Shown here: positions 5,043 to 13,016 of the stretch, one piece after another
Position numbering within the stretch: position 1 is the stretch's first letter
Layout of the letters: each line of letters opens with the position of its first letter
Assembly (NCBI GenBank): GCA_035543435.1
Contig: DATKKD010000011.1
Coordinates: 1 to 17,437, forward strand
Direction: 5' to 3'
Length of the DNA: 17,437 bases
From: Thermoplasmatota archaeon
GTDB taxonomy: Archaea > Thermoplasmatota > E2 > DHVEG-1
Translations under genes and position numbers: made by a program
Notes under the pieces: model-generated
What the model was told of the DNA's origin: nothing
The model's input: only the letters and a program-made list of their open reading frames with translations
The model's database searches: none

Positions 5043-5098
5043 GAAAAAGATAGACAACCATGAGAATCGCGCATCAACGCCTGCTTCACTTTTCAAGA

Positions 5099-5169
5099 CA
5101 GCCCCGGGCGGATTTGAACCGCCGACGTTGGCTCCAAAGGCCAAAATGTTGCCACTACACCACGGGGCT
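5099..5169 (-). tRNA. tRNA-Gln(UUG): tRNA-Gln, anticodon UUG; 71 nt including discriminator G73; no encoded CCA; no intron
   Basis: The reverse complement folds as AGCCCCG TG GTGT AGTGGCA ACAT T TTGGC CTTTGGA GCCAA CGTC GGCGG TTCAAAT CCGCC CGGGGCT G. It has a 7-bp acceptor stem, a 4-bp D stem, a 5-bp anticodon stem with a 7-nt loop (U33, anticodon TTG), and a 5-bp T stem with a TTCAAAT loop. Confidence 0.9.
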
Positions 5170-5195
5170 ATACTTCGGTATCCGGGATTCCTTGA

Positions 5196-5205
5196 TTTTA
5201 TTTAA
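5196..5205 (-). promoter_or_regulatory. TATA box for tRNA-Gln(UUG)
   Basis: The minus strand reads TTAAATAAAA, centred about 31 nt upstream of the mature tRNA 5' end (5169). This fits the archaeal TATA-to-TSS distance with a very short leader. It lies in the 67-nt spacer after the glnS stop. Confidence 0.5.
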
Positions 5206-5236
5206 CTCTATGCATTGGGACCACGTGTTGATCCGA

Positions 5237-6928
5237 TTATTTCGCCTGCCCTGCCTTCTGCAATTTCGCCCAGGTGTCACGCAGCTCCACCGTCCTGTTG
5301 ATGACCAGGTTGTTTGTGGTGCTGTCAGGGTCGACGCAGAAGTACCCGAGGCGTTCGAACTGGAAACGGTCGAATGGCTTCAGGTGGCTTACCGCTGGTT
5401 CCACCTTGCAACCAGAGAGCTTTTCGAGCGACTGCGGGTTGAGGAACTCTTTGAACTCCCTGCCTTTCTCACCGGTCGGGTCTTTGACGGTGAACAGCCG
5501 GTCGTACAGCCGCACCTCCGCGGTGGCCGCGTGGCTCTCAGAGACCCAATGGATCGTTGACTTGACTTTCCTGCCGTCAGCCGCGTACCCTCCTTTGGTC
5601 GCGGGGTCGTAGCTGCAGTGGAGCTCCATGACGCGCCCGTCTTTTTTCACCACGCTTGTGCATTTGATGAAATAGGCGTATCGCAAACGTACCTCTCGGC
5701 CTGGTGCGAGCCGGTAGAAATCCTTCGGTGGGTTCTCCATGAAGTCGTCCTGTTCGATGAACAACGTCTGAGCAAAGGGGATCGTGCGCGACCCCATCGC
5801 TGGGTCCTCGGGGTTGTTTACGGCCTCAAGCTCCTCCGTGTGAGCCGCCGGGTAGTTATCGATGATGACCCTGAGCGGGTGGAGCACACCCATGTACCGA
5901 GGCGAGGTCTTGTTCAGGTCCTCCCTGATGCAGTGTTCGAGGAACTCGATGTCGACGATGCTGTTGAACTTCGCGACGCCGATGCGTTTGCAGAACGTCC
6001 TGATCGCGGACGGAGAGTACCCGCGCCTGCGCATCCCGCTGATGGTGGGGAGCCGCGGGTCGTCCCAGCCTGAGACGAGCTTTGCGTCCACGAGCTGCAG
6101 CAGCAGCCGTTTGCTCATGACCGTGAAGGTGAGGTTGAGTCGTGCGAACTCTATCTGCTGCGGGTGGTACACCCCGAGCGCGTCCAGGAACCAGTCGTAG
6201 AGCGGGCGGTGGTTCTCGAACTCGAGCGTGCAGATGGAATGTGTGATGCCTTCGATGGAATCCTCCAGTCCGTGCGCCCAGTCGTACATCGGGTAGATGC
6301 ACCACTTGTCGCCGGTCCGATGGTGGGACGCATGCAGGATCCGGTACATCACTGGGTCGCGCATGTTGAGGTTCGGGTCCGCCATTTCGATTTTTGCACG
6401 CAGTACCTTCTCGCCGTCGCCGAATTCCCCTGCTTTCATCCGTTCGAGTAGCTCGAGGTTCTCCTCGACGGGTCGATCGCGGAACGGGCTGTTCCTCCCG
6501 GGTTTGGTGAGCGTCCCTCGGTAGTCGGTGATCTGGTCCGCGGTGAGGTCGTCGACGTACGCCTTGCCGTCTTTGACGAGGTGCACCGCGTACTCGTACA
6601 TCTGGTCGAAGTAATCGGAGGCGAAGAACAGGCGGTCCTGCCAATCGAACCCGAGCCATTTGACGTTGTCGATGATGGAGCGGACGTACTCCTCTTCCTC
6701 TTTCGCGGGGTTCGTGTCATCAAAGCGGAGGTTGCAGAGGCCCTTGTATTCCTGGGCGATGCCGAAGTTGAGGCAGATGGATTTCGCATGGCCGATGTGG
6801 AGGTACCCGTTTGGTTCTGGGGGGAACCTGGTGTGCACCCTGCCTTGGTACTTGTTGGTTCTGAGGTCTTCATCGATGATGTCTCTGATAAAATCCTTGG
6901 TAGCTGTCTCGGTTGATTCCATAGCCAT
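5237..6928 (-). CDS. glnS: Glutaminyl-tRNA synthetase (GlnRS), bacterial type
   Basis: 563-aa ORF. It is near-colinear with the E. coli GlnRS sequence as I remember it: N-terminal [10 protein letters not shown]; [41 protein letters not shown] (HIGH motif); [11 protein letters not shown]; THSICTLEF; [11 protein letters not shown] (the KMSKS equivalent); [18 protein letters not shown]; [14 protein letters not shown]; LYDRLF; and C-terminal [12 protein letters not shown]...[12 protein letters not shown]. These strings distinguish GlnRS from archaeal or bacterial GluRS. Confidence 0.95.
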
Positions 6929-6954
6929 CTCCCACTTCCTCGAGGTGTGGTGGA

Positions 6955-7026
6955 CAGCCCCGACCAGATTCGAACTGGTGTTTAGAGATCCAGAGTCTCT
7001 TGTGCTAACCGCTGCACCACGGGGCT
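6955..7026 (-). tRNA. tRNA-Gln(CUG): tRNA-Gln, anticodon CUG; 72 nt including discriminator G73; no encoded CCA; no intron
   Basis: The reverse complement folds as AGCCCCG TG GTGC AGCGGTTA GCAC A AGAGA CTCTGGA TCTCT AAAC ACCAG TTCGAAT CTGGT CGGGGCT G. This is a canonical cloverleaf with anticodon CTG. Its 3' end lies only 26 nt upstream of the glnS ATG. Confidence 0.9.
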
Positions 7027-7062
7027 ACGGTGTTTCGTGCACACCGGAAGAGAAAACACCTC

Positions 7063-7070
7063 ATATATAA
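7063..7070 (-). promoter_or_regulatory. TATA box for the tRNA-Gln(CUG)-glnS transcription unit
   Basis: The minus strand reads AAAAATTATATATGA (A-rich BRE-like stretch plus TTATATAT). Its downstream edge is 37 nt from the tRNA 5' end. No other TATA-like element lies between it and the glnS ATG. Confidence 0.5.
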
Positions 7071-7212
7071 TTTTTCATTCCCATAGGAAATTCCTACTTA
7101 TACGTTCGTCCTTGCTCGGTCTTAGAAAGGCAAAGGAAGGCAACGATACCCTTAAATAAACAGCTTGTTTTTGTTTCAAAAACCATCGATTTTAACTGGA
7201 GAGTATAGAAGT

Positions 7213-7875
7213 ATGAAACCGAGTAAGCCGAGCGTCGTCCTCATCGTGATGCTTCTTGTTGTCGTGGGTCTCGCTGGCTGCACCCAGCAGCAGGTTCCTC
7301 TGAGTGGGACGGAGATTAGAGAGTATCAAGGACACAAGCTCAACTCGATCTTTGACATGCATCAGAACACCATCAAGGGCGCGCAGTATGTGAACGAAAC
7401 CACCTACCGTCTGCACATTTACGGGCTTGTCGACTCGCCGGTGAACCTCACCTATCAGGACATCACGACCAATTTCACGCAGTATCGAAAAGTCGCGACC
7501 CTCGACTGTGTGGAGGGCTGGAGCGTGACGCTACTCTGGGAAGGGCCGCTCGTGAGGGATCTCCTGAACGAGTCCCGTCCAAAGCCTGGGGCGACCACCC
7601 TGGTCTTTTTCTCAAGCGATGGGTTCACCACCTCCGTTCCCTTCGCATATGTGATGAACAACTCGATCATCCTTGCATGGAGGATGAACAACGTCACGAT
7701 CCCACCGCAGTACGGATTCCCGTTCCAGCTCGTCGCTGAGGGGAAATGGGGGTACAAGTGGAGCAAGTGGGTCACCGGCATCGAGGTGATCGACAACCCG
7801 AACTACAAGGGGTTCTGGGAGAGCAGAGGGTACTCCGTCTCAGGTGATTTGAACCAAAGTTTTTCAGGAGGATGA
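7213..7875 (+). CDS. Exported lipoprotein with a sulfite-oxidase-family (Oxidored_molyb, MsrP/YedY-like) molybdopterin-binding fold
   Basis: The ORF track starts at a TTG at 7165. I prefer ATG 7213, which is preceded by TGGAGAG. The signal peptide MKPSKPSVVLIVMLLVVVGLAGC ends in a lipobox-like LAGC. LDCVEGWS resembles the Cys-containing Mo-ligand motif of the family. GFPFQLVAEGKWGYKWSKWV resembles the conserved C-terminal part. There are seven N-x-S/T sequons. Confidence 0.75.
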   Translation: MKPSKPSVVLIVMLLVVVGLAGCTQQQVPLSGTEIREYQGHKLNSIFDMHQNTIKGAQYVNETTYRLHIYGLVDSPVNLTYQDITTNFTQYRKVATLDCVEGWSVTLLWEGPLVRDLLNESRPKPGATTLVFFSSDGFTTSVPFAYVMNNSIILAWRMNNVTIPPQYGFPFQLVAEGKWGYKWSKWVTGIEVIDNPNYKGFWESRGYSVSGDLNQSFSGG

Positions 7876-9841: not shown

Positions 9842-10543
9842 ATGAACGCTCCGAAGAGGATCCCCGGAATGCTTTCGGTTGTTGTTCCCATCCACTTCTT
9901 GTATCCTGAGCTTGACCGGGTGCGCGCATCGATTCAACGCGCGAGCACACCGGTCGAGGTCCTGCTTGTGACCCAGGAGGCGCTCAAGGAGTCTCTTGGT
10001 CCGCTCCTCCCCCGTGAAACGCTCATCGTCACCGCGAAGCAGGGAAGGGGTCCTGTCCTTGCCGAGGGTGTACGAGAAGCTCACGGTGATATCATCGTCT
10101 TTGTCCATGCCGACACGATTCTGCCTGACCATTGGGATCACACCATCGTCGACGCGCTGCGTGATGAGGAGGTCCTCGGGGGCGGGTTTTCGCTCTCTAT
10201 GGATACCCCTGCTGCGTATTTGAAGCTCCTCATCGCCCTCACCGATTTCTTGTACTATGTCAACGGGGAGCTCTGGGGGGACCGTGCCCTGTTTGTGCGC
10301 TCCAGCTTCATCAGACAGCATCTTACGGAGATCGAGATTCCGATGATGGAGGACGTGCGGCTCACCCTGATGATGCAGCGGTACGGGGCCGTGGTGCTCC
10401 TCAAGGAGAAGGTGGTCACCAGCGCGGCGACGTTTCGCAAGTACGGATTTTTGCGCAACTCGATCCGCATCATCCTTGTTCGCCTCTGGTACGGGGCGGG
10501 TAGGGACCCGAAAAAAATCTATGAGTACTATTACCGTAGGTAA
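9842..10543 (+). CDS. GT-A fold family-2 glycosyltransferase, resembling the TIGR04283-type subfamily
   Basis: 233-aa ORF. Recognisable strings are LSVVVPI (N-terminal beta strand), GRGPVLAEG, IIVFVHADTILP (the DxD-equivalent), GGGFSL, WGDRALFVR, MMEDVRL and TSAATFRKYG. The start could be Met10 (9869). Confidence 0.7.
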   Translation: MNAPKRIPGMLSVVVPIHFLYPELDRVRASIQRASTPVEVLLVTQEALKESLGPLLPRETLIVTAKQGRGPVLAEGVREAHGDIIVFVHADTILPDHWDHTIVDALRDEEVLGGGFSLSMDTPAAYLKLLIALTDFLYYVNGELWGDRALFVRSSFIRQHLTEIEIPMMEDVRLTLMMQRYGAVVLLKEKVVTSAATFRKYGFLRNSIRIILVRLWYGAGRDPKKIYEYYYRR

Positions 10544-10554
10544 GAGGGTATGGG

Positions 10555-10569
10555 AAAAAAAGAAAAAAA
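10555..10569 (-). terminator. T7-C-T7 oligo-T terminator for the chagasin-like gene
   Basis: The plus strand shows A7 G A7. On the minus strand this reads CTCTCCCCCTTTTTTTCTTTTTTT, starting 16 nt after the TAA stop. Confidence 0.45.
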
Positions 10570-10584
10570 GGGGGAGAGAACAGA

Positions 10585-11016
10585 TTAATTTATCTGGATT
10601 TGTAGAGTCAGGGTCTGGCAGATGTCCAGCTGATCGAATGCTCGTTCGCATTCGAGTTTCAGGGTGGTGCTTCCTGCTTTGAGCGCGGTGAACAGGAAGG
10701 TGTCCTTGCCGAAGTCGCCCATCATCCCGGAGCTTCCCCAGTTGGTTTGCTGGTCTTGTCGCAGCATGGTGGTGTCGATGCTTTTGATGACCCAGGTGTA
10801 GCCGCCGTCGCCGTAGTCATGGAGTGTCACGTTCAACAGGTCGCCTTGTTTGATCGAGATGATGGTGCCGTTGTTTTGTTCCGTGACATACACCGTCGAA
10901 GGAGTCAAAGGTTTGTTGACGGGTTTTTCAGAGAGGGTGACCGCAAGGACGGTCCCGGCTGCGATCGCAGCGAGCATCACTAGCCCTACAAAGACAATGG
11001 TTGTTTTCGTTTTCAT
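10585..11016 (-). CDS. Membrane-anchored/secreted chagasin-family (I42) cysteine-peptidase inhibitor-like protein
   Basis: The ORF-track entry is 10585..11106. I prefer Met31 (ATG 11016), which has TGAGGAT as an SD and a TATA box at 11051-11060. The N-terminal signal/anchor is MKTKTTIVFVGLVMLAAIAAGTVLAV. The Ig-like domain contains GDLLNVTLHDYGDGGYTW (compare the L-x-L-x-x-N-x-T-T-G-Y-x-W motif) and GKDTFLFTALKAGSTTLKLEC. Confidence 0.7.
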   Translation of the reverse strand: MKTKTTIVFVGLVMLAAIAAGTVLAVTLSEKPVNKPLTPSTVYVTEQNNGTIISIKQGDLLNVTLHDYGDGGYTWVIKSIDTTMLRQDQQTNWGSSGMMGDFGKDTFLFTALKAGSTTLKLECERAFDQLDICQTLTLQIQIN

Positions 11017-11050
11017 AGGTATCCTCAAGGACTGGTTATGGTCGTTGACG

Positions 11051-11060
11051 GTATATAAAA
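11051..11060 (-). promoter_or_regulatory. TATA box for the chagasin-like gene
   Basis: The minus strand reads CCTTTTATATACC, 35-44 nt upstream of ATG 11016. This leaves room for a short SD-containing leader. Confidence 0.45.
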
Positions 11061-11174
11061 GGTCAGAAAATGTTTGGGAAAGGCCGAACGGCAAGGATCT
11101 TAGCACGGCTGCTACTGGGATCTTTTGTTTGCGGTTTTTTTATGGAGAAAATCTGTGAATTGGAGCGGCAATAC

Positions 11175-11203
11175 GTATATATTATTGTATATATAAGTAT
11201 ATG
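11175..11203. repeat. Three closely spaced GTATAT(A) copies (starts at 11175, 11187 and 11197)
   Basis: The sequence reads directly as cGTATATAttattGTATATATAaGTATATGtgg, with spacing of 12 and 10 nt (about one helical turn). It is not positioned to be the core promoter of either flanking gene, since each has its own better-placed TATA box. Confidence 0.5.
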
Positions 11204-11315
11204 TGGATACTTGCGTGATTTTTCACTTTGTCATTTTCCCGCACCAACTATATAAGCTATGATAGATAAAATACAACATTGGGTTAAGAATGAGAAATGG
11301 TGGAGGTGGCGAGTC

Positions 11316-11390
11316 ATGGAAATATACGTCATCGGCGCTATTGCCGCGCTAGGTGCTATGTATCCCGTTGTTCGATCACTCGTGGGATGA
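11316..11390 (+). CDS. Possible 24-aa hydrophobic micro-protein
   Basis: My translation is MEIYVIGAIAALGAMYPVVRSLVG-TGA. GGAGGTG (11302-11308) lies 7 nt upstream of the ATG. A TATA-like CTATATAAG sits at 11248-11256. T5 (11409-11413) and T6 (11426-11431) runs lie downstream on the same strand. The ORF is too short for the ORF track. Confidence 0.3.
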   Translation: MEIYVIGAIAALGAMYPVVRSLVG

Positions 11391-11433
11391 GCACCTCTCC
11401 TCTTTCAATTTTTCTGAGAAGTCTCTTTTTTGC

Positions 11434-12420
11434 TTATATCTCCGGCATCCATCGGTACTTATGGACCTGCTTGAGCATGAAATACTCGTATTTTCGGACA
11501 GCCCCCGGGAACTTCGCATTGATGTCCTCAAGCATCGAATGAATCATGTCTGAGTCTGGGAGGTCGGGTTCCAGTTCCAGGTCGGAGACACCCGCGGAGG
11601 TGCCGATGAACACCAGGTGCGGATTGTTTCTCGCGTACTCCATGATCGCCTTACGTTGGGTGTGCTGTTTCAGGTAAATGTCGATTTTAAACGGTTTCAG
11701 CCCAAGCTTCGAGATGTCGACACCGACACGGAACGCCTGGATGACCCCTTTCTTCATGAGGTTCTTCATCCTGCTGTTGACCATCTGGGTTGAACAGTGA
11801 AGCTCCCGTGCGAGGTCCACGAGCGGCATGCGAGCGTTCTCAGCGATGAGATTCAACAGGCGTCTGTCGTACTCATCTGTGTCGACCTTCTTCCCGACCC
11901 CGGTGATCTCGTACTTCCTCCTGTCAGATGTTTTGAACTCGTCCCCAAGCAAATACGAGGAGGGGTACGAGTACGCCTGGACATAGATGGAGAAGATCTT
12001 CTCTGAGAGGTAGTCCCCGTACTTATCAAGGAACTTCTCCCAGAAGTGATAGAACTCGCTGATGTCCTTCACCCAGACAAAGACACCGAGGTCGTAGCGT
12101 CCGATAATCGACTCGATCACCCAGGTTCGCTTGTCCTTCACGAGGTAATCGATGAGGTTGGCTTTGATCTCCGGGGTGACGTACTGGAAGACGAGGTAGA
12201 AACGGAACACGATGTAGCCGAGCTTGTAGGCGTCGATGACTGTCCAAAAACCGGTGATGATTCCCTCCTGCTGCATCCGTTTGATGCGATACGCGACGAT
12301 GTCTTTGCGCAGCCTGACCTTTTTCCCCAGCTGCGATAAGGACTGACGCGAGTTGATGTCGAGTTGGTACAGAATCCTGCGGTCCTTCACGTCCAGCGAA
12401 TACATAATTCTCCCAAACAT
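11434..12420 (-). CDS. Lrp/AsnC-family transcriptional regulator with an internally duplicated (tandem) HTH plus effector-domain architecture
   Basis: 328-aa ORF. There are two copies of the family N-terminal pattern: DRRILYQLDINSRQSLSQLGKKVRLRKDIVAYRIKRMQQEGIITGF (residues about 13-57) and DRRLLNLIAENARMPLVDLARELHCSTQMVNSRMKNLMKKGVIQAF (about 185-229). Each is followed by an alpha/beta-sandwich-length segment. Confidence 0.85.
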   Translation of the reverse strand: MFGRIMYSLDVKDRRILYQLDINSRQSLSQLGKKVRLRKDIVAYRIKRMQQEGIITGFWTVIDAYKLGYIVFRFYLVFQYVTPEIKANLIDYLVKDKRTWVIESIIGRYDLGVFVWVKDISEFYHFWEKFLDKYGDYLSEKIFSIYVQAYSYPSSYLLGDEFKTSDRRKYEITGVGKKVDTDEYDRRLLNLIAENARMPLVDLARELHCSTQMVNSRMKNLMKKGVIQAFRVGVDISKLGLKPFKIDIYLKQHTQRKAIMEYARNNPHLVFIGTSAGVSDLELEPDLPDSDMIHSMLEDINAKFPGAVRKYEYFMLKQVHKYRWMPEI

Positions 12421-12460
12421 GTAAAATTCGTCTAGTATTTCATTGTTTTGCTAGATTTTT

Positions 12461-12505
12461 AAGGGAACTATACTTATATTTCTCCCCTGACATGGGTAGT
12501 TCCTT
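12461..12505. promoter_or_regulatory. Inverted repeat AAGGGAACTA / TAGTTCCTT bracketing a TATA-like element upstream of the Lrp/AsnC gene
   Basis: GGAACTA (12464-12470) and TAGTTCC (12497-12503) are perfect reverse complements 26 nt apart. The flanking AAG/CTT extend the match with one bulge. The sequence between them contains TACTTATATTT (AAATATAAGTA on the minus strand), 50-60 nt upstream of the regulator ATG at 12420. Confidence 0.35.
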
Positions 12506-13016
12506 GGGGAGAGTATGATAAACAACATCGGTCGACCGTCCCAGTACATCCAGACTGGTATCACGCAGATCCACAGCCAGATTTATGTTGTTGACTTCTT
12601 CGGTGACTCCGTCGATGCTATGGTCACCATCGATAGCGGCACGGACCATGCCCCGGAAAGCGCCGCTTGTCTCGTTCTCCTCTTCGTTGACCCTAAGGTC
12701 GGCGCCGTCACCGAGGACATAACAAGTAATTAATAAATGTTCAGTCAAGAATAATACGCGCGATAATCAACAGATTAGGAGCCTTTCTTAACTTCATTCA
12801 GGCACTGCGTAGGAAACCGCTTACGAAAACACAGGCTGATGCACTGAGTAGTGGTGCCCAGATACTCATTAACATGCTGACCAACTCTTTTTTTCTTATC
12901 AATTTTTTTAAACATAGCGACCATGAGTAGACAATCGTAGTGATGATTTGAACAAACCTTTGAGAGGGATACCTTAAAAAAGATGTGGCTAATTCGCTAG
13001 CATCGTGTGATAGTAT

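Follow-up and report, generated by a model that had tools for sequence, protein, structure and literature searches.

A locus in a 17,437-nucleotide contig (DATKKD010000011.1, assembly GCA_035543435.1; the whole of this stretch is called the window below), which belongs to a metagenome-assembled genome (MAG) of a Thermoplasmatota archaeon and carries a gene for glutaminyl-tRNA synthetase (GlnRS, encoded by glnS) between two tRNA-Gln genes, raises the question of how an archaeon came to have an enzyme that archaea are thought to lack, and whether this enzyme charges the tRNAs beside it. To our knowledge, the view held in the field since 2000 has been that archaea never acquired GlnRS, and that their tRNA-Gln, with an A1:U72 pair and the discriminator base A73, is not a substrate of this enzyme and has co-evolved with the amidotransferase GatDE. 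A 2017 survey did not find GlnRS in archaeal genomes, and according to reviews from 2022 the enzyme is missing from every known archaeon, Gln-tRNA is always made indirectly there, and the absence is an anomaly explained by the identity of tRNA-Gln (PMC9499178, PMC8762117). A full-text literature search returned nothing that describes a GlnRS from Thermoplasmatota or a tRNA-glnS-tRNA arrangement, and a search by the accessions of the complete genomes given below found no paper; annotated entries for the archaeal GlnRS have for some time been available in public databases, one of them (P0248) under the label 'Thermoplasmatales archaeon ex4484_30'. It is quite probable that the locus is a direct-glutaminylation module of a Thermoplasmatota archaeon, which would derive from one old transfer of glnS and would use native tRNAs adapted through a G73 discriminator.

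ARAGORN finds two tRNA genes and no others in the 17.4-kb window, both of them tRNA-Gln (anticodons CUG and UUG), both on the minus strand and with one open reading frame (ORF) between them. Along that strand, a putative BRE/TATA promoter (BRE, transcription factor B recognition element) is followed by tRNA-Gln(CUG), a 26-nt spacer, glnS, a 67-nt spacer with a TATA box of its own and tRNA-Gln(UUG) (Table 1). This gene order, given in a preliminary description of the sequence, is exact to the base according to ARAGORN, Rfam and the ORF coordinates, and the two spacers reported there are reproduced when the tRNA ends set by the Rfam tRNA model are combined with the ORF at 5237-6928. ARAGORN starts each tRNA one base early, a shift of register that comes partly from the TCCA following G73 of tRNA-Gln(CUG), a gene in which no CCA is encoded in register. 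The second ATG of glnS, at 6922, is an alternative start that would give a protein of 561 aa.

Table 1. Features of the tRNA-glnS-tRNA locus (positions in the window, tRNA ends according to the Rfam model).
Feature	Position	Strand	Basis or remarks
Putative promoter P1 of tRNA-Gln(CUG) and glnS	7063..7076	-	Purine-rich BRE-like GAAAAA, then TATA box TTATATAT
tRNA-Gln(CUG), 72 nt	6955..7026	-	Rfam RF00005, 65.7 bits, full-length model; also ARAGORN
Spacer from G73 of tRNA(CUG) to the glnS ATG, 26 nt	6929..6954	-	Shine-Dalgarno (SD)-like GAGGAAGTGGGAG; no TATA box, no T-run
glnS, bacterial-type GlnRS of 563 aa	5237..6928	-	TIGR00440, Pfam, alignment to E. coli GlnRS
Putative promoter P2 of tRNA-Gln(UUG)	5193..5213	-	Conserved block GCATAgagTTAAATAAAATCA
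tRNA-Gln(UUG), 71 nt	5099..5169	-	Rfam RF00005, 63.2 bits, full-length model; also ARAGORN
T5 run, possible archaeal oligo-T terminator of the module	5043..5047	-	About 50 nt 3' of tRNA(UUG); weak, by position only

Judged by its sequence, the protein encoded between the two tRNA genes is a true GlnRS. It scores 740.3 bits against the glnS equivalog model TIGR00440 (cutoff 425.8) and 343 bits against the archaeal GluRS model TIGR00463, under the cutoff of that model (402), and it contains the Pfam domains tRNA-synt_1c (PF00749), tRNA-synt_1c_C (PF03950) and tRNA-synt_1c_C2 (PF20974), as a class Ib synthetase with a catalytic domain and two beta-barrel domains for anticodon binding should. Its residues 7-556 align to residues 4-551 of E. 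coli GlnRS (E ~1e-210), with HIGH and VMSKR motifs that match E. coli residues 40-43 and 267-271, and the pairwise alignment (1QRS/1GTS) keeps all of the glutamine-pocket residues Arg30, Tyr211, Cys229 and Gln255, together with Leu136, Arg260 and Arg341. The score against TIGR00440, the nearly full-length alignment and the active-site residues bear out the earlier characterization of the protein as a bacterial-type GlnRS colinear with that of E. coli. The best NCBIfam model is NF011291 (GlnRS/YqeY fusion, 862 bits), whose match covers positions 7-561 of 769; no YqeY (GatB-like) domain is present in the window protein, which ends at residue 563. Because this C-terminal domain is absent, the name 'GlnRS/YqeY fusion' given by the Prokaryotic Genome Annotation Pipeline (PGAP) is misleading for these proteins. 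One homologue from ENA (P0122, 832 aa), in which about 270 residues are duplicated internally, was considered as a fusion or new architecture and rejected, the internal duplication being most likely an assembly artefact.

The enzyme is 100% identical to HVP99953.1 of NCBI, which comes from a 'Candidatus Thermoplasmatota archaeon' MAG, and three homology searches, once pooled, gave at least 338 distinct 90%-identity clusters of related GlnRS. The named relatives belong to at least 10 independent MAGs and carry the NCBI labels Thermoplasmatota, Thermoplasmata, Thermoplasmatales (including ex4484_30), Methanomassiliicoccales and Euryarchaeota archaeon. Five members of the clusters lie on chromosome-sized archaeal records (CP070798.1, 1.92 Mb; CP070712.1, 1.82 Mb; CP070724.1, 2.32 Mb; CP070739.1, 3.22 Mb; and CP070672.1, 4.23 Mb) and further members on two JGI contigs, 961 kb and 240 kb long. 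The 10 kb on each side of glnS in CP070672.1 (locus L175) hold genes for an archaeal ThrRS with an editing domain, RpoL, LonB, PurP and an archaeal phosphopantothenate synthetase. Locus L086 contains a tRNA-Glu(UUC) gene (5908-6040) with an intron about 55 nt long between positions 37 and 38, a site typical of archaeal spliced tRNAs, and because of this intron ARAGORN in bacterial mode misses the gene. Misbinning is excluded by these archaeal chromosomes, archaeal neighbours and the tRNA intron, and the archaeal host proposed in the preliminary description is upheld by the MAG of HVP99953.1, by the complete chromosomes of the relatives and by the archaeal marker genes adjacent to glnS.

The association of glnS with tRNA-Gln genes was followed in 15 independent archaeal lineages (the window, L081, L082, L166, L168, L169, L165, L086, L087, L089 and L171 to L175). 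A tRNA-Gln gene lies within 1 kb of glnS in all 15, which confirms the physical linkage claimed earlier, and in 12 of them a tRNA-Gln(CUG) with G73 stands directly upstream on the same strand, at a distance of 15-68 nt. A G73 tRNA-Gln(UUG) follows glnS in 11 of the 14 lineages with enough downstream sequence. The complete tRNA(CUG)-glnS-tRNA(UUG) sandwich, for which a survey of related genomes had been proposed, was found in 10 of the 14 lineages with enough flank (GlnRS identities of 77-100%), but it is not universal: the upstream tRNA is missing from L086; L089, the basal branch, has the order tRNA-Val, tRNA-Gln(CUG), glnS with nothing downstream; L174 likewise lacks a tRNA upstream, but 250 nt downstream of its glnS lies an intact A73 tRNA-Gln(CUG); and in L175 a G73 tRNA-Gln(UUG) lies 620 nt upstream of glnS, with an opposite-strand gene between them. 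As a control, about 150 bacterial glnS loci among the matches listed include only 13 with a tRNA-Gln in the flanks; in 7 of these 13 a tRNA-Gln(CUG) directly adjoins glnS (L006, L051, L077, L138, L147, L152 and L159), and none has two tRNA-Gln genes. Recurrence of the sandwich in 10 of 14 archaeal lineages, against 0 of about 150 bacterial loci with two tRNA-Gln genes, argues that it is not due to chance. The preliminary description had also considered that glnS might be common and vertically inherited in this clade with no fixed link to tRNA-Gln genes; it is indeed common and vertically inherited, but the link has been retained.

The two linked tRNAs combine an archaeal body with a bacterial-type discriminator. 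Both have A1:U72, G2:C71, C3:G70, G12:C23 and G73, and they differ in the pair at 10:25 and in the anticodon (G10:C25 and loop CU-CUG-GA in tRNA-Gln(CUG); G10:U25 and loop CU-UUG-GA in tRNA-Gln(UUG)). In the Rfam alignment, both show the acceptor strands AGCCCCG...CGGGGCU with an unpaired G at 73, and their D-stems (GUGC/GCAC and GUGU/ACAU) form G12:C23, instead of the C12:G23 that is the canonical pair of archaeal tRNA-Gln (PMC9499178). A1:U72 is thus the canonical archaeal feature that both keep, and A73 is one that both lack; the 'archaeal-style' A1:U72 end noted earlier is present, but G73, the detail that tells most about the locus, had been overlooked. A73 is given as the norm of archaeal tRNA-Gln in the passages of a review that cite Marck and Grosjean (PMC9499178) and is present in the reconstructed last archaeal ancestor (LACA; PMC13433404), whereas G73 belongs to the bacterial (E. 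coli) identity set of tRNA-Gln (PMC9976931, PMC13433404). Of the E. coli identity elements, G73, G2:C71, G10, U35 and G36 are all found in both window tRNAs, and U1:A72 and G3:C70 are missing, their places being taken by A1:U72 (weak, reversed) and C3:G70. G73 occurs in the glnS-linked tRNAs of 14 of the 15 archaeal lineages. The comparison of sequences adds two points to the preliminary description, namely that the discriminator of the linked tRNAs is of the bacterial type and that the linkage is old and conserved, although not invariant.

Among themselves, the tRNA-Gln genes at archaeal glnS loci share 67-99% identity, but with bacterial tRNA-Gln they share only 49-64%, which indicates that the linked tRNAs are native and were not imported; a bacterial origin of the tRNAs along with glnS was rejected on this sequence identity. 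All of the archaeal-locus tRNA-Gln have A1:U72, compared with U1:A72 in 13 of the 13 bacterial tRNA-Gln seen. The window tRNA-Gln(CUG) is 97% identical to its counterparts in core-clade loci and 86-92% identical to those in L165, L087, L089 and L171-L173, and tRNA-Gln(UUG) is 85-88% identical to the G73-type UUG tRNAs of L165, L171, L173 and L086.

Adjustment was apparently made on the tRNA side, because the GlnRS alignment contains four archaeal-specific columns, none of which falls in the acceptor-binding domain; remodelling of GlnRS in archaea was rejected for the same reason. The equivalent of E. coli Asp235 is Asn in the window enzyme and in 130 of 130 archaeal GlnRS (first alignment), but it is Asn as well in 36 of 155 bacterial relatives, so this residue was rejected as an archaeal-specific adaptation and retained as a likely pre-adaptation only. 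At loci where the enzyme and an adjacent tRNA are both known, Asp235 is found solely beside G3:C70 tRNAs (5 of 5), and bacterial tRNAs that lack G3:C70 are paired with Asn or Val at this position (6 of 6). Separately, the GlnRS of bacterial loci L041, L043, L051, L152 and L159 has Val in place of E. coli Asp235 and Pro in place of Leu136, and the adjoining tRNA-Gln has U3:A70 or C3:G70 together with A73, a combination that seems to be a separate version of the glutamine identity set in bacteria.

Some sister lineages keep a tRNA-Gln of the A73 type, similar to tRNA-Glu, beside glnS (intact in two of them and decayed in one). In L165, an intact A73 tRNA-Gln(UUG) lies between glnS and the G73 UUG tRNA and shares 81% identity with the tRNA-Glu(UUC) next to it, a likeness as expected for a substrate of a GluRS of the non-discriminating kind (ND-GluRS). 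In L087, an A73-type tRNA-Gln(UUG) gene begins at the cut end of the locus. The L171 copy (11740-11812) is 90% identical to the intact L165 gene and has decayed, with a G2.A71 mismatch in the acceptor stem and a broken anticodon stem, and it receives no ARAGORN call; no A73-type tRNA-Gln(UUG) stands beside glnS in L172, in L173 or in the whole core clade. Because of these copies and of the A73 tRNA-Gln(CUG) of L174, it seems that glnS landed in a native tRNA-Gln/tRNA-Glu cluster, and this handful of loci also suggests that A73-type genes are being lost where G73-type genes exist.

Repeats occur near three of these loci. The last 13 nt of tRNA-Glu(UUC) in L165, CCCGACGGGAGCA, are repeated about 45 nt 3' of the gene (6050-6115); the repeat has the appearance of an att-type duplication that an integrating element left behind. 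In L174, glnS and the A73 tRNA-Gln(CUG) are separated by two elements of about 65 nt (11760-11940), each with a start like the 5' end of tRNA-Gln (AGCCCCGTAGT), an internal A-run/T-run hairpin and the end GGGGAT, and a fragment like a tRNA 3' half is found further downstream (12130-12165); a similar element is present in L175 (11755-11830). These elements may be tRNA-derived repeats or integration scars.

The origin of the enzyme was addressed with a neighbour-joining (NJ) tree (100 bootstraps) of 82 archaeal GlnRS, which include a sample of the 90%-identity clusters, and 155 bacterial GlnRS obtained from two scans of contig collections; these scans gave mostly bacterial loci and few archaeal relatives, and served as outgroup and control. 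All 100 replicates recover the archaeal sequences as a single clade, which is nested among the bacterial ones (an earlier set was also analysed), in agreement with the horizontal acquisition proposed in the preliminary description. The phylogeny suggested there thus yields a single archaeal clade within bacteria, but it does not pin down a donor, since the sister group is a Pirellulales/Sumerlaeota set in 27-36% of the replicates and Dehalococcoidia in 9%. The nearest bacterial GlnRS, among the matches listed, are 71-74% identical. A search of plasmids and phages gave no close relative of the window GlnRS (best match 61% identical), although phage D6 and plasmids do carry glnS genes. Core-clade loci share MsrP-like, AhpC, threonine-aldolase-like and chagasin-like genes near glnS. 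The monophyly of the archaeal clade within bacterial GlnRS and these syntenic neighbourhoods make one ancient transfer of glnS from bacteria to archaea, probably followed by vertical descent, the simplest reading of the sequences.

Expression of the module can be outlined from sequence position. Both TATA boxes noted earlier were located, and both are kept in relatives. That of the putative P1 (TTATATAT, 7063-7070) ends 36 nt upstream of position 1 of tRNA-Gln(CUG), and the block aTGAAAAgTTATATATg is kept at the same distance in L081, L082, L166, L168, L169 and L165 and, more weakly, in L087. That of the putative P2 (TTAAATAAAA, 5196-5205) ends 26 nt upstream of position 1 of tRNA-Gln(UUG), where a second conserved block, GCATAnnnTTAAATAAAATCA, is found, and the P2 block is kept in all core-clade loci. 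By position, both have the spacing of archaeal BRE/TATA elements (about 25-35 nt upstream of the transcribed RNA), and both would function as promoters. The spacer between tRNA-Gln(CUG) and glnS measures 15-35 nt in the core clade, with GAGGAAGTGGGAG conserved and neither TATA box nor T-run, and is too short for a promoter of its own, so that core-clade glnS is probably transcribed from the tRNA promoter. Co-transcription of tRNA-Gln(CUG) and glnS, with 3' processing of the tRNA freeing the mRNA, is the only simple reading and would account for the transcriptional coupling that the preliminary description thought probable. T-runs follow tRNA-Gln(UUG) in most loci, directly in L081 (TTTTT) and L168 (T8), and an AT-rich region of its own lies upstream of glnS in L174, in L175 and perhaps in L089.

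From these elements, a bacterial glnS would have moved once into or beside the native tRNA-Gln cluster of a Thermoplasmatota ancestor and would have been inherited vertically since. The enzyme is an ordinary bacterial-type GlnRS with almost no changes specific to archaea, and adaptation appears to be on the tRNA side: the linked tRNAs keep their archaeal body and a weak A1:U72 pair that GlnRS can open, they have G73, the discriminator used by bacterial GlnRS, in the place of archaeal A73, and archaeal C3:G70 should be tolerated because, in the sampled loci, tRNAs without G3:C70 are those found with Asn at the Asp235 position. P1 would drive tRNA-Gln(CUG) and glnS as a single transcript, and processing of the tRNA by RNase P and RNase Z would set it free and leave a glnS mRNA with a short SD-bearing leader, and tRNA-Gln(UUG) would be transcribed from its own promoter downstream. 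That the window tRNAs are charged, what G73 does, and in which direction and when the tRNAs changed are presumed parts of this scheme.

The alternatives differ in how much of the locus they take as native. A bacterial contig, or a misbinned bacterial fragment carrying an ordinary bacterial glnS with tRNAs nearby, would suit a 17-kb MAG contig whose closest non-archaeal GlnRS are bacterial (up to 71-74% identity) and whose PGAP name derives from a bacterial fusion-protein model, but this explanation is effectively refuted by the close relatives on archaeal-labelled chromosomes of 1.8-4.2 Mb with archaeal-only neighbours, by A1:U72 in the window tRNAs as opposed to bacterial U1:A72, by the BRE/TATA promoters conserved at the locus, by the archaeal-type tRNA intron of L086 and by synteny across many independent assemblies. 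It is also very improbable that the tRNAs were transferred with glnS as a donor cassette and later archaealised from U1:A72 to A1:U72. In favour of such a cassette, 7 of about 150 bacterial glnS loci directly adjoin tRNA-Gln(CUG), and G73 and the CU-CUG-GA loop are shared with the bacterial tRNA-Gln of related GlnRS lineages; however, both isoacceptors occur in no bacterial locus, identities of 67-81% link the archaeal-locus tRNAs with each other, with the A73-type tRNA-Gln and with the archaeal tRNA-Glu nearby, compared with only 49-64% for bacterial tRNA-Gln, and the acceptor stem AGCCCCG and the T-arm are common to the G73 CUG tRNA and the A73 UUG tRNA. tRNA genes are classical integration sites, and the flanking tRNAs could instead be an integration scar without function, in which case G73 would have nothing to do with GlnRS, and ND-GluRS with GatDE would still be the main route for these tRNAs. 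The repeated fragments like the 5' end and the 3' half of tRNA-Gln beside L174 glnS, the duplicated tRNA-Glu 3' end near the L165 locus, the travelling of glnS on phage D6 and plasmids, the varying arrangement in L086, L089, L174 and L175 and the expression of gatE in a Thermoprofundales MAG speak for this possibility. It is nevertheless unlikely, since no integrase or element remnants were seen in the 15 archaeal loci, the linkage has been kept over about 30% protein divergence, core-clade glnS appears to have no promoter of its own and to rely on that of the tRNA, G73 marks the linked tRNAs of 14 of 15 lineages although A73 is the norm in archaea, several lineages have lost the Glu-like A73 copy or have it in decay, and a GlnRS that is intact, conserved and complete in its active site would not persist without substrates.

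A direct-glutaminylation module built on native tRNAs is thus the preferred explanation, and several points weigh against it. Its support comes from sequence; the trees are NJ only; Asn235, shared by those 36 of 155 bacterial relatives, is a pre-existing state and no archaeal adaptation; and the derived status of G73 in the phylum rests on the literature and on the A73 copies in L165, L087, L171 and L174. Moreover, the sandwich could be a passive relic of the landing site and not a selected operon. L174, with its intact A73 tRNA-Gln(CUG) by glnS and no G73 tRNA within 10 kb, implies that G73 is not strictly coupled to glnS and that the enzyme may also accept A73. The two linked tRNAs may also be less than the 'complete set of substrates' of the preliminary description, since other tRNA-Gln genes may exist elsewhere in the genome, and sister lineages have a third, A73-type tRNA-Gln gene beside glnS.

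A stronger proposal, towards which the balance of probability is somewhat unfavourable, is that the window lineage has switched fully from GluRS/GatDE to direct glutaminylation and is free of GatDE, a change that the substitution of A73 by G73 would have enabled, with L165, L087 and L174 in a dual state. If this were true, the window would represent an archaeal lineage without the 'signature' amidotransferase, and the sister lineages would run two naturally orthogonal routes, with A73 tRNA-Gln for GluRS/GatDE and G73 tRNA-Gln for GlnRS. Expression of gatE is recorded for one Thermoprofundales (MBG-D) MAG (PMC6461988, supplement), which could not be tied to the window lineage. Independently of this proposal, the locus shows that a large and widespread archaeal clade did acquire GlnRS, and suggests that acquisition required a pre-adapted Asn235 enzyme together with a change of tRNA discriminator, so that the old explanation for the absence of GlnRS from archaea becomes testable. 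The synthetase and its tRNAs form a natural pair of hybrid identity, with a possible use in genetic-code engineering.

The rest of the window contains several genes of separate interest. A molybdopterin oxidoreductase gene (MsrP/SorA-like, 7165-7875, plus strand) is divergent from the tRNA-Gln(CUG) promoter; in relatives L167 and L169 (8700-9700) an MsrP/SorA-like gene is followed by an 83-aa cytochrome-b-like (Ni_hydr_CYTB) gene, and this archaeal pair resembles bacterial MsrPQ. A gene for a chagasin-family (I42) inhibitor of cysteine peptidases (10585-11106, minus strand) is also found near glnS in L081, L082, L169 and L173, and relatives have, nearby, genes for large secreted peptidases of the C25 (gingipain-like), C1 and C11 families that contain PKD domains, which suggests a protein-degrading lifestyle in sediments. 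A duplicated regulator of 328 aa with two tandem helix-turn-helix domains of the Lrp/AsnC type (11434-12420, minus strand) is syntenic in L166. The GC content of the stretch 10500-13000 is 0.46-0.49, below the value of about 0.55 in the other parts, and the GC skew is strongly positive at about 10.5-11.5 kb; this stretch may be a foreign or intergenic-rich segment.

Among known systems, the E. coli GlnRS/tRNA-Gln pair (PDB 1GTS, 1QTQ) shares with the window the enzyme family, the domain order, HIGH/VMSKR, the Gln pocket, Leu136 and the anticodon-reading Arg341, as well as G73, G2:C71, G10, U35 and G36 of the tRNA. It differs in having U1:A72, G3:C70 and A37/U38 where the window tRNAs have A1:U72, C3:G70 and G37/A38, and the window is set apart further by its archaeal host, Asn at the Asp235 position, the place of glnS between its tRNA genes and archaeal promoters. 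The Deinococcus-type GlnRS/YqeY fusion (NF011291, PDB 2HZ7) provides the best NCBIfam model and the PGAP name, although the window enzyme is without YqeY. Genetic linkage of a tRNA to its synthetase is known from the pylT-pylS cassette, in which the tRNA-Pyl gene adjoins the PylRS gene and both are inherited or transferred as a unit, and in the E. coli thrU-tyrU-glyT-thrT-tufB operon tRNAs are co-transcribed with the mRNA of a translation factor and released by tRNA processing; unlike these, the window has native tRNAs and a foreign enzyme, both isoacceptors as flanks and archaeal promoters. The sporadic adjacency of glnS and tRNA-Gln(CUG) in bacteria (Bacteroidota, Chloroflexota and others) is similar in that a cognate tRNA lies within about 100 nt of glnS, but it involves a single tRNA with U1:A72, in many cases located downstream of glnS or on the other strand, and never both isoacceptors. 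A gene annotated as GlnRS is also found in the archaeal Heimdallarchaeia, next to cox genes (2024 preprint, bioRxiv 10.1101/2024.07.04.601786), in another phylum and context, and the text of that preprint has no analysis of tRNA linkage or identity. Finally, the archaeal route through ND-GluRS and GatDE leads to the same product, Gln-tRNA-Gln, and the window tRNAs keep the A1:U72 pair that is a recognition element of GatDE; in contrast, the window is predicted to reach this product in one step, with an acquired enzyme and with G73 instead of A73.

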